Part shown: piece by piece, positions 11,485-12,706 of the stretch
Layout of the letters: the number at the start of each line of letters is the position of its first letter
Numbering within the stretch: the stretch's first letter is position 1
Assembly: GCA_963827655.1 (NCBI GenBank)
Contig: CAWHCF010000026.1
Coordinates: forward strand, 224,001 to 288,000
Direction of reading: 5' to 3'
Length of the DNA stretch: 64,000 bases
Origin: an uncultured Acidobacteriota bacterium
GTDB taxonomy: Bacteria; Acidobacteriota; UBA6911
Made by a program: the position numbers and the translations under genes
Notes under the pieces: model-generated
Database searches by the model: none
Told to the model about the DNA's origin: nothing
What the model saw: the letters and a program-made list of their open reading frames with translations, nothing else

Positions 11485-11955
11485 ATGAAAGAGATCAACG
11501 AGATCAAAGTCGGAGAGGAGGCACCCGACTTCACCCTGCCCAGCCATCTGGGCGGAAGCATTACTTTGAGTGAACTCCGCGGCAAGAACGTCGTTCTGGC
11601 CTTTTATCCGGCGGCGTTCACGCCTGTTTGAACCGTTCAAATGCCCTCGTACGAGGAGGATCTCCCCGAGTTCGAGAGGTATGACGCCCAGGTGCTGGGC
11701 ATAAGCGTCGACAACGTTCCCACCAACAAAGCGTGGGCAAATTCCATGGGCGGCATCTCGTACCACCTGCTGAGCGATTTCTGGCCGCATGGGTATGTAG
11801 CCGTCAAATACAATATTCTTCGCAGCGAAGGTTTCACCGAGCGGGCGCTGTTCGTGATCGACAAGCAAGGGATGGTCAGGTACAAAGACATTCATGCGAT
11901 CGGGGACCAGCCCAGGAACAGCGAACTCTTTGACGCGCTCAAGAAAATCGCCTAG
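11485..11955 (+). CDS. AhpE-type peroxiredoxin, probable selenoprotein (UGA at 11629-11631)
   Basis: RBS CAGGAG and ATG 11485 read ...[17 protein letters not shown], in frame with ORF 11641..11955; UGA sits at the peroxidatic Cys of PxxxTxx[10 protein letters not shown] is AhpE-like. Confidence 0.9.
11645..11656 (+). promoter_or_regulatory. Candidate SECIS hairpin
   Basis: CCTC-GTAC-GAGG; loop G is 18 nt after the UGA. Confidence 0.6.
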
Positions 11956-12016
11956 CGTCAACGCACCTTGGTGATTTCTGTTTTACGCCTTGCACCGCCG
12001 GGTGCGCAGGATACGT

Positions 12017-12706
12017 ATGCCCGAAATCTCGCGCTATTGCATCCCGTATACGCCCTTCACCGGCAAGCTGGAGAGCAGCCGTGTCGGAATTGTCAGCACG
12101 GCCGGAGTTCATCTGAGAAGCCAGCCCCCTTTTGTGCCGGAAGGAGATACAACCTTTCGCCTGATTCCAGCCGATGCAACTACGGATCTGACGACGGTCA
12201 CCCACGACCACTACGACCACAGCGATGCGCGCCGTGATGTGAACTGCGTGTTTCCGGTCGAGACCCTGCGCGAACTCGTGGCGGCGGGGAAGTTGGGCTC
12301 AACTACGCCCGAGCACCTCTGCATGGGATACTCACAGGCGATGCGGGAAATCAAGGAGAAGGTGGCCCACGAGATAGCCTTGATCACGCGAAAGTGGAAA
12401 TCGGATGCCATACTCCTGACCGCCGGCTGACCACTCTGTCATCGGACGGTCGTCACGCTCCAGCGCGCTATCGAAATGGAAGGGATCCCGACGGTTCTCA
12501 TAACCGTGGACCCCGAGCAGAGCTGGCAGGCGCGCCCGTCGCGCGCATTCTATCCTCGAGGCTTCAAACTGGGACATTCGCTGGGCCAGCCCGGCGCCCG
12601 TGATCTTCATCAGAGACTCGTGATCGATGCTCTCGACCTCTTGATCCACCCGGAAGAGCCTGGGACCATCGCCGAACAGGAGTATCCCGAATACTCCCCC
12701 GCTTGA
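12017..12706 (+). CDS. PrdB-like (GrdB/PrdB family) probable selenoprotein with UxxC motif (UGA at 12428-12430)
   Basis: ORFs 11990..12430 and 12476..12706 are in frame across LLTAG-TGA-PLCHRTVVTLQRAIEMEGIPT, resembling the clostridial PrdB TAGUxxCHR motif; also STAGVH, HYDHSDA, DVNCVFP. Confidence 0.9.
12443..12457 (+). promoter_or_regulatory. Candidate SECIS hairpin
   Basis: CG-GAC-GGTC-GTC-a-CG; loop G is 18 nt after the UGA. Confidence 0.5.

Follow-up and report, generated by a model that had tools for sequence, protein, structure and literature searches.

How is a peroxiredoxin (Prx) that lacks cysteine (Cys) altogether returned to its reduced state, and what does a relative of the D-proline reductase subunit PrdB do away from a proline reductase? 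Both questions are raised by two adjacent genes in an uncultured Acidobacteriota bacterium (assembly GCA_963827655.1, contig CAWHCF010000026.1), which we analyzed within a stretch of 64,000 nucleotides (nt) referred to as the window. The upstream gene encodes an AhpE-type Prx and the downstream gene a stand-alone PrdB-like protein of the GrdB/PrdB superfamily. A first-pass annotation had described them as co-oriented open reading frames (ORFs) separated by a 61-nt gap and each carrying one in-frame TGA, and these statements are all exact. The best explanation of the two ORFs is that they are intact selenoprotein genes forming a conserved two-gene peroxide-defence module, in which the PrdB-like protein, with its U/C-x2-3-C motif, would probably be the dedicated reductant of the Prx.

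Judged by comparison of sequences, both TGAs are true selenocysteine (Sec) codons, and the comparative evidence is decisive. We examined 14 genome loci from Acidobacteriota, Myxococcaceae, Chloroflexia, Ktedonobacteraceae and Syntrophobacterales. The codon aligned with that of Sec49 in the Prx is TGA in all eight upstream Prx genes covering it, with Cys in other relatives, and the codon aligned with that of Sec138 in the PrdB-like protein is TGA in ten loci, Cys in three and not covered in one. Stops at these aligned positions are always TGA, never TAA or TAG. Over 107 related loci, which were not de-duplicated (L051 repeats L042), the Sec138 position holds TGA in 76 and Cys in 30, with one misaligned. 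The protein sequence is conserved on both sides of each TGA in the alignments of relatives (23 Prx and 40 PrdB-like proteins), and the conservation of the two TGAs goes far beyond chance. Reads with TGC or TGT had been named in advance as grounds for abandoning the Sec interpretation; no contig with TGC, TGT or any other letter was found at either TGA. Contigs from three RNA-library runs (two studies) and from one DNA run keep the first TGA, and contigs from two of these RNA-library runs keep the second, with the proviso that RNA libraries may contain DNA. The stretch is present in soil and rhizosphere runs. That the TGAs are true stops, the genes being pseudogenes or products of sequencing error, is next to impossible. 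The assembly does contain indel errors or variants elsewhere, and its selA is frameshifted, but dozens of independent assemblies share the TGA and conserve the protein sequence beyond it, independent contigs offer no alternative letter, and selA is intact in all five relatives that carry a Sec/Sec pair.

Each TGA is followed by a hairpin resembling a selenocysteine insertion sequence (SECIS). The Prx hairpin has a fold z-score of −2.57 and an alifold consensus of 13 pairs; 88% of its cells are paired, compared with 34–51% in slid controls, and three pairs change on both sides. The PrdB-like hairpin, derived by eye and not proposed by RNAalifold alone, has five named pairs, with 89% of cells paired compared with 18–69% in slid controls and three of the five pairs changing on both sides. 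Coding constraint confounds both tests, and a search of Rfam gave no match. The machinery for Sec insertion, whose absence from a complete genome had likewise been named as fatal to the idea, is encoded in the host genome (8.18 Mb in 53 contigs, 59% G+C, 90.3% complete): the one tRNA-Sec, selB (380 bits) and selD (384 bits) are intact, and the one selA (398 bits) is present though frameshifted in the assembly.

The Prx has no Cys codon among its 156 residues, as the first-pass annotation had reported, and Sec49 is its sole redox residue. The label of a Sec-containing AhpE is also correct: PF00578 (AhpC-TSA) matches residues 9–133 at 1.8e-36, and the best solved relative is Mycobacterium tuberculosis AhpE (1xvw/4x1u; E 1e-30, aligned over residues 7–148), followed by BCP-like 2ywn (7e-27) and by typical 2-Cys Prx structures at 1e-17 or weaker. 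This assignment is by comparison with the solved Prx classes. The active-site motif is P42-AAF-T46-PV-U49, the TGA standing at the peroxidatic position of P-x3-T-x2-C, and R120, which aligns with the Arg of AhpE, is invariant in the 23 relatives. The NCBIfam model peroxi_PrxU scores the protein at 71.7 bits against a cut-off of 270 and the protein is therefore an AhpE-type Sec-Prx of a different subfamily from clostridial PrxU. The lack of a resolving Cys points to a one-Cys-type mechanism. According to a passage in PMC8113037, M. tuberculosis AhpE is recycled by mycothiol and mycoredoxin-1, and a Prx of this type without any Cys would thus need a partner.

Some related genes deserve mention. 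At loci L053–L058 (genomes G040, G056, G083, G216, G070 and G305), where the partner is the Cys form with x3 spacing (C-P-E-T-C), an additional Cys has arisen in the Sec-Prx two positions ahead of the catalytic Arg (G-I-C-E-R); this Cys is possibly an internal resolving residue. A third selenoprotein gene in the window (36290-36745, plus strand; TGA at 36422-36424) was found as a 32%-identical, TGA-containing match to the AhpE-type Prx; it encodes a BCP/PrxQ-type Prx whose peroxidatic residue is Sec and which has a Cys five positions further along (PKADTPG-U-TREAC). Another Prx-like gene with one in-frame TGA, 45% identical to the window Prx, lies at G000:C23:427164-427541 on the minus strand. 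The host genome appears rich in selenoproteins.

The PrdB-like protein is related to PrdB by sequence. It scores 141.6 bits (E 2.7e-41) with the PrdB model TIGR04483, whose equivalog cut-off is 300, and 21.6 bits with Pfam PF07355 (GRDB), whose gathering score is 22; GrdB models reach it only over residues 57–166. Most full-length relatives carry PF07355 in precomputed annotation. It has the U-x-x-C of PrdB as U138-P-L-C141, and a U/C-x2-3-C-H-R motif is present in 105 of the 107 loci, as U/C-x2-C in 41 and U/C-x3-C in 64. It was predicted that standard annotation would fragment both genes, and this is borne out for the second one: 16 of 120 listed public relatives are exactly 137 amino acids (aa) long, that is, cut at the TGA.

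Nevertheless, the PrdB annotation is wrong in a functional sense, and the protein has lost any link to proline reductase. The statement that the window contains no prdA, prdC or grd gene holds, and for prdA and grdE it extends to the whole 90%-complete assembly. PF09338 (PrdA/GrdE family) and TIGR04480 (PrdA) gave zero matches in the host genome and in five further genomes with a PrdB-like gene, among which a completeness figure (100%) is known for G050 only. The real prd operon of Terrisporobacter mayombei plasmid pTM1 (prdC-prdA-prdH-prdB, prdD, prdE; L140) served as a positive control, in which PF09338 matched PrdA (75.4 bits), PrdD and PrdE. When the pTM1 proteins were searched against the host genome by tblastn, PrdA, PrdH, PrdD and PrdE gave nothing significant (best, PrdA at E 0.01 over 67 aa), PrdC gave only 26%-identical generic matches, and PrdB found the window gene and one paralog only. 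A cognate prdA elsewhere in the genome, combined with a lack of conserved linkage to the Prx, had been set out as a refutation; no such prdA was found with the control working, and the linkage is conserved, as described below.

The window clade and true PrdB have 27 invariant columns in common. In the window clade, the S-H-G-G-Y-D-N of true PrdB is replaced by x-H-x-H-Y-D-H, the F-M-G-G-G-G stretch is missing, and an N-terminal S-R-x-C-I-P-Y-T-P containing Cys8 is added. Cys8 is conserved in all 105 loci that cover it and is missing from true PrdB, from the paralog in the host genome and from another PrdB-like clade. A maximum-likelihood tree of 57 rows, obtained by a quick search with a midpoint root, places 39 proteins of the Prx-linked clade on one side of a branch with support of 96 (Shimodaira–Hasegawa-like approximate likelihood ratio test, SH-aLRT), the two true PrdB rows outside as sister, and the second PrdB-like clade and the host paralog further off. 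A genuine PrdB subunit whose PrdA gene falls within the unassembled part of the genome, roughly 10%, is an extremely unlikely alternative. The incomplete assembly (90.3%) leaves room for it, and the Joint Genome Institute (JGI) names relatives 'D-proline reductase (dithiol) PrdB'; however, the protein falls under the equivalog cut-off, forms a separate clade and has its PrdB-specific motifs replaced, the five other genomes hold no PrdA-family match, and prd genes, normally adjacent as in pTM1, are not found nearby in about 100 loci.

The host paralog itself (G000:C52, L022:1180-2070, plus strand) is 37% identical to the window protein and has a longer N-terminus. It has Cys at the Sec position and Ser at the second position (GG-C-EL-S-HQ), lacks Cys8, has no Prx alongside and adjoins a gene that, judged by eye, is putatively of the cation-efflux type.

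The linkage of the PrdB-like gene to the Prx is strongly conserved in genome loci, in a sample of the phylum and in metagenomes. The Prx gene lies directly upstream on the same strand in nine of the 14 genome loci, and a Cys-form Prx gene lies convergently just downstream in one from Chloroflexia. The four others without a Prx are L033, L039 (no upstream sequence), L043 (other clade) and L044 (weak partial match). The phylum was sampled evenly with 401 genomes, of which 106 had some PrdB-like match at E ≤ 1e-10. At the 15 best places (at least 161.8 bits and at least 39% identity, the window's own included), a Prx match of at least 53% identity is found upstream on the same strand and contig in 15 of 15, ending 18–234 nt away. 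Both partners have Sec in eight of these pairs, a Sec-Prx stands beside a Cys partner in six, and both have Cys in one. Since all three states occur, the pairing is independent of the Sec/Cys state. A metagenome scan gave at least 599 pattern matches and at least 348 relatives, from which the best-scoring 80 loci, not independent of each other, were kept. Of these loci, 41 have the Prx gene immediately upstream, six have it upstream at a distance of up to 2.6 kb, 13 have it downstream in convergent orientation and three have it at another place in the locus, amounting to 63 of the 70 decidable loci; ten were too short to tell.

The gap between the Prx and PrdB-like matches in related loci ranges from 14 to 391 nt, and some loci have an O-methyltransferase gene, which looks unrelated, between the two partners. 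When neighbouring genes were clustered, nothing but the pair recurred and no third conserved gene emerged, and Pfam scans of 33 neighbours returned unrelated functions. In one Myxococcaceae lineage, a gene for a 547-aa pyridine-nucleotide disulfide oxidoreductase stands divergent from the Prx gene (L037:3776-5416, minus strand) and recurs at L083; its product could be an electron donor. Over 23 pairs, the pairwise identities of the Prx and those of the PrdB-like protein are correlated (r = 0.82, with none of 2000 permutations as high), a correlation that reflects only joint inheritance and not co-evolution.

The linkage is specific. A second acidobacterial PrdB-like clade (loci L144–L157), which has U-P-x-C-H-Q-S, no Cys8 and mostly Sec, is widespread and without a conserved neighbour. 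An adjacent AhpE-like Prx gene was found in none of its 14 loci, and its one weak Prx match is 21% identical, about 2 kb off and on the opposite strand. The linkage is therefore a property of one clade and not of selenoprotein genes generally. Two members of the second clade, L147 and L150, have two TGAs, giving U-P-I-U. Conversely, no PrdB-like neighbour accompanies four of the phylum-sample Prx matches that reach 50% identity (those in G065, G322, G224 and G258), and that of G065 is the sole Sec form. It is a natural fusion (L158:2318-3058, plus strand) of a Sec AhpE-type Prx to a C-terminal glutaredoxin/mycoredoxin-like domain with W-C-S-D-C. The fused domain matches PF00462 at 1.3e-9 and, below the cut-offs of both NCBIfam models, YruB-family glutaredoxin-like protein at 1.4e-14 and mycoredoxin at 2.3e-11. 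The G065 genome has zero PrdB-like matches. A CxxC redoxin at the place of the PrdB-like gene is what would be expected if that place belongs to a reductant. Twelve unpaired Cys-form Prx relatives that were checked are plain proteins of 150–160 aa.

From the genomes compared, the pair is a clade-specific conserved module. Neighbours without a joint function, kept together, for example, by a shared need for Sec insertion or by shared regulation, might be expected in a genome rich in selenoprotein genes with a third one in the same window. This is very improbable indeed, because the two genes stay together where one partner or both have Cys, and do so in two different gene orientations, because it is specific to one PrdB-like clade (15/15 versus 0/14), and because the partner is specifically an AhpE-type Prx and not just any selenoprotein.

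We used the AlphaFold2 model of a natural Cys-form relative, P0028, which is 50% identical to the window protein (mean predicted local distance difference test (pLDDT) score 93.4, predicted template modelling (pTM) score 0.92). The model is a single compact domain of alternating β-strands and α-helices, with the CxxC between strand 129–134 and helix 137–152. Such a strand-to-helix position is typical for redox-active pairs. No solved relative was found by sequence; the best hit of a profile search was at E 0.69, with glutaredoxin at E 2, which is chance level. Foldseek with the model gave no match at E ≤ 0.001, VIA-align returned a flat list of generic three-layer α/β folds (Z 9.0 to 7.2), and the ESM Atlas matches were GRDB/PrdB-named clusters only. 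The HxHxDH string (H63–H68) was considered as a metallo-β-lactamase-like metal site and dropped, since only H65 is invariant in it and true PrdB has GG there.

The compact single α/β domain also bears on whether the pair is a peroxide-sensing relay, in which the Prx would oxidise the PrdB-like protein and the oxidised form of the latter would be a signal or switch and not a step in bulk peroxide removal. Prx-based relays are an established principle, and the third conserved Cys, Cys8, could support a thiol switch. However, nothing that could serve as an output, such as a regulator or a DNA-binding domain, is conserved nearby, the model shows no more than the one domain, and Sec in both partners suits high-turnover catalysis better. 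We regard such a relay as very unlikely.

The PrdB-like protein has features expected of a reductant, namely a conserved di-thiol/selenol motif, at a helix N-terminus in the model, and linkage to the Prx gene. We infer its recycling role from this linkage, from the conservation of the motif and from the one analogous fusion. In the cycle that we propose, the selenolate of Sec49 in the Prx would reduce a hydroperoxide and become a selenenic acid, for which the Prx has no resolving Cys of its own. Sec138 of the PrdB-like protein would then attack the oxidised Prx to give an intermolecular Se–Se (or Se–S) bond, and Cys141 would resolve this bond, releasing the reduced Prx and leaving an intramolecular selenenylsulfide on the PrdB-like protein. 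This end state would be the same as that of PrdB in D-proline reductase, with the oxidised Prx in the role of the substrate. Re-reduction of the selenenylsulfide would fall to an unlinked donor outside the module, such as thioredoxin or a different disulfide reductase. Which way the electrons flow, the attacking residues and the upstream donor are all part of what we infer; what the data show is the Sec coding, the family assignments, the absence of PrdA, and the conservation of linkage and motif.

Several observations weigh against this interpretation. In the assembly, the coding sequence of the only selA gene (G000:C23:243631-244996, minus strand, locus L002) is scattered across three or more reading frames. 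Within 3.8 kb, the assembly differs from a 96%-identical metagenome contig, L059, at 12 gapped positions (10 indel events of 1–2 bases), one of which breaks the glucokinase gene downstream of the pair; with such indels elsewhere, the selA breaks are probably assembly errors, though they may also reflect decay. The module includes no gene for an upstream reductase, and a flavoprotein disulfide reductase stands alongside in only 2 of 108 sequences (the 107 loci and the window). The Prx is missing, despite room for it, from seven of the 70 decidable loci among the best 80 from metagenomes, and also from the neighbourhood of the Ktedonobacteraceae locus L033. Ktedonobacteria often have the two genes apart, though on contigs of equal size in protein records, and the three genomes checked have an AhpE-like Prx of the Cys form elsewhere. 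AhpE-like Prx genes of the Cys type are also numerous where there is no PrdB-like gene at all, and therefore this type of Prx does not strictly need a PrdB-like partner. A fusion of the two proteins was found neither among the best 120 relatives of near length (longest, 288 aa) nor at 402–2000 aa, although this is weak evidence. RNA-library contigs cover both genes, yet none of those listed bridges 11996-12014, so that co-transcription is neither supported nor excluded. Finally, the clade and true PrdB have twelve invariant polar residues in common (D44, R48, H63, Y66, D67, D74, N76, H100, H142, R150, E153 and R176), which may mean a substrate pocket and not a plain redox carrier.

The last point leads to an alternative in which the PrdB-like protein is itself a catalytic reductase for a small substrate with Grd/Prd-type chemistry, Sec attacking a carbon or heteroatom and Cys resolving. 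The Prx would then be not its client but an accessory that protects the PrdB-like protein or re-oxidises and regenerates it. In addition to the shared polar residues, a pocket is suggested by H65, which is invariant in the Prx-linked clade (107/107), and H68, which is nearly so (104/107); the protein, at 229 aa, is much larger than a typical redoxin, and some lineages have the gene without an adjacent Prx. We nevertheless consider this alternative unlikely: no carbonyl- or pyruvoyl-bearing partner of the PrdA/GrdE family was found, the one neighbour that is conserved, a 1-Sec/1-Cys Prx, itself needs a reductant, and a Grx-like domain takes the same place in G065. Reduction of the Prx by the PrdB-like protein thus remains the reading that we prefer.

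The features of the pair are collected in the following table. A scan of the spacer for promoters and terminators gave no sigma-70-like promoter and no terminator pattern. A difference in the length of a C run (C5/C4) at 12692-12696, at the 3' end of the PrdB-like gene, was considered as an error and rejected, since the window version yields 229 aa, as in the three closest relatives.

Features of the Prx/PrdB-like gene pair, with positions counted from the first letter of the window
Feature	Position	Strand	Remarks
Shine-Dalgarno-like AGGAG	11469..11473	+	precedes the Prx start codon by 11 nt; seen in the sequence itself
AhpE-type Sec-peroxiredoxin gene	11485..11955	+	156 codons/aa, no Cys; stop TAG 11953-55
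Sec49 codon TGA (Prx)	11629..11631	+	P-x3-T-x2-U motif, FTPV-U-TVQ
SECIS-like hairpin (Prx)	11642..11681	+	begins 11 nt after UGA
Intergenic spacer, 61 nt	11956..12016	+	Shine-Dalgarno-like AGGA at 12008-12011 precedes the second start codon by 5 nt
Stand-alone PrdB-like (GrdB/PrdB superfamily) selenoprotein gene	12017..12706	+	229 aa; stop TGA 12704-06
Cys8 codon (SRY-C-IPYTP), PrdB-like gene	12038..12040	+	third conserved Cys, Prx-linked clade only
Sec138 codon TGA, PrdB-like gene	12428..12430	+	opens U-P-L-C-H-R redox motif (LLTAG-U-PLC-HRT)
Cys141 codon, PrdB-like gene	12437-12439	+	second residue of the redox pair
SECIS-like mini-hairpin, PrdB-like gene	12443..12457	+	GGUC loop 12448-51; begins 12 nt after UGA

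Shortly after the stop codon of the PrdB-like gene, at 12709-12764, is a 9-nt perfect inverted repeat (AGTCTTCGT / ACGAAGACT, 38 nt apart). Summed depth is very high over a repeated core of about 36 nt (approximately 12738-12773), with numerous contigs diverging to either side of it, which suggests a multi-copy short element in these communities. The downstream glucokinase gene is split into ORFs at 12815-12994 and 12999-13904 (plus strand), with positions 1–45 of the glucokinase Pfam profile in the first and 53–311 in the next. Compared with L059, the window carries one additional G, at 12972, and the frameshift is probably an assembly indel. WD40-repeat genes and APAF1-like STAND genes lie upstream of the pair (8442-11137, minus strand) and a CHAT-domain gene lies downstream (15666-19169, minus strand); such genes are commonplace in large genomes of soil bacteria and show no conservation together with the pair.

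Both families have already been catalogued. The first-pass annotation knew of no description of their pairing, and none of the literature searched, from which subscription journals were excluded, states one; the 'Selenoprotein operon' section of a 2026 review contains no Prx-PrdB pairing (PMC13188914), and neither do passages from a 2022 review, a 2006 survey, the paper on the C. sticklandii genome and the paper on deep-Sep. In the parts of two environmental surveys that report such counts, the Prx (TxxU) and PrdB (UxxC) families are among the most numerous selenoprotein families, ranking second and third in the Sargasso Sea with 43 and 42 genes and reaching 253 and 235 in the Global Ocean Sampling (GOS) data (PMC1088965, PMC2398784). 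Such near-equal marine counts would fit a 1:1 module if the marine sequences belong to the Prx-linked clade.

We put forward tentatively, with slightly less than even confidence, a broader proposal: that the stand-alone 'PrdB' labelled as D-proline reductase may be a new PrdB-fold class of Prx reductase, forming with an AhpE-type (seleno)Prx a widespread two-selenoprotein peroxidase that uses Se–Se/Se–S exchange. If this is true, the catalytic subunit of an anaerobic amino-acid reductase would have been re-used for aerobic peroxide defence, or the reverse, and a new protein fold would join the short list of Prx-recycling systems. The conserved, clade-specific pair would provide one answer to two questions, namely the function of the PrdB-like protein and the identity of the reductant of AhpE-type Prx outside mycothiol-producing actinobacteria. 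Since stand-alone PrdB-like proteins are routinely named proline reductase or cut at the UGA, a widespread annotation would also be corrected. The Sec/Sec, Sec/Cys and Cys/Cys versions, the last occurring, for example, in G050 and in Ktedonobacteria, offer a natural system for asking what selenium buys a peroxidase couple.

The closest known relative of the downstream protein is PrdB of clostridial D-proline reductase, a selenoprotein subunit of 26 kDa (TIGR04483; pTM1). The window protein is homologous to it over nearly the full length (36% identity, E 1.5e-36) and is of similar size, with Sec at the same place in U-x-x-C-H-R, and true PrdB appears as its sister group in the midpoint-rooted quick tree beside the shared invariant columns. 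It differs in the clade-specific Cys8, His65 and His68, in the absence of the GG and GGGG motifs, in a spacing of x2 or x3 and in its location, the gene adjoining a Prx gene whereas true PrdB sits in the prd operon. In D-proline reductase, according to the relevant part of PMC3091704, the Sec of PrdB attacks the substrate and Cys resolves, giving a mixed selenide-sulfide that is re-reduced by a partner.

Among peroxiredoxins, M. tuberculosis AhpE (1xvw, 4x1u) likewise has a one-cysteine mechanism without a resolving Cys and depends on a dedicated redoxin of CxxC type (PMC8113037), and JGI names Cys-form relatives of the window Prx 'mycoredoxin-dependent peroxiredoxin'. The window Prx differs from AhpE in having Sec, in having a candidate reductant of PrdB fold and not glutaredoxin fold, and in its hosts, which are Acidobacteriota, Myxococcota and Chloroflexota. 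Like the 'Prx, TxxU' family of the Zhang/Gladyshev surveys, it has Sec at the peroxidatic position in T-x-x-U. PrxU of Eubacterium acidaminophilum is reportedly the founding case of a Sec-Prx, dating to Sohling et al. in 2001; the window Prx is of a different subfamily, the AhpE type, and falls under the peroxi_PrxU cut-off.

In its overall arrangement, the pair resembles the two-component Prx systems. AhpF and AhpD act as Prx reductants. In AhpC/AhpF, AhpC/AhpD, Prx/thioredoxin and the 1NM3 hybrid, the last being the Prx5-glutaredoxin hybrid of Haemophilus influenzae listed in a section of PMC8113037, the peroxidase gene stands beside or is fused to that of a CxxC reductant, and the G065 fusion is alike. 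The module described here would differ from all of them in that its proposed PrdB-like reductant belongs to none of their folds.

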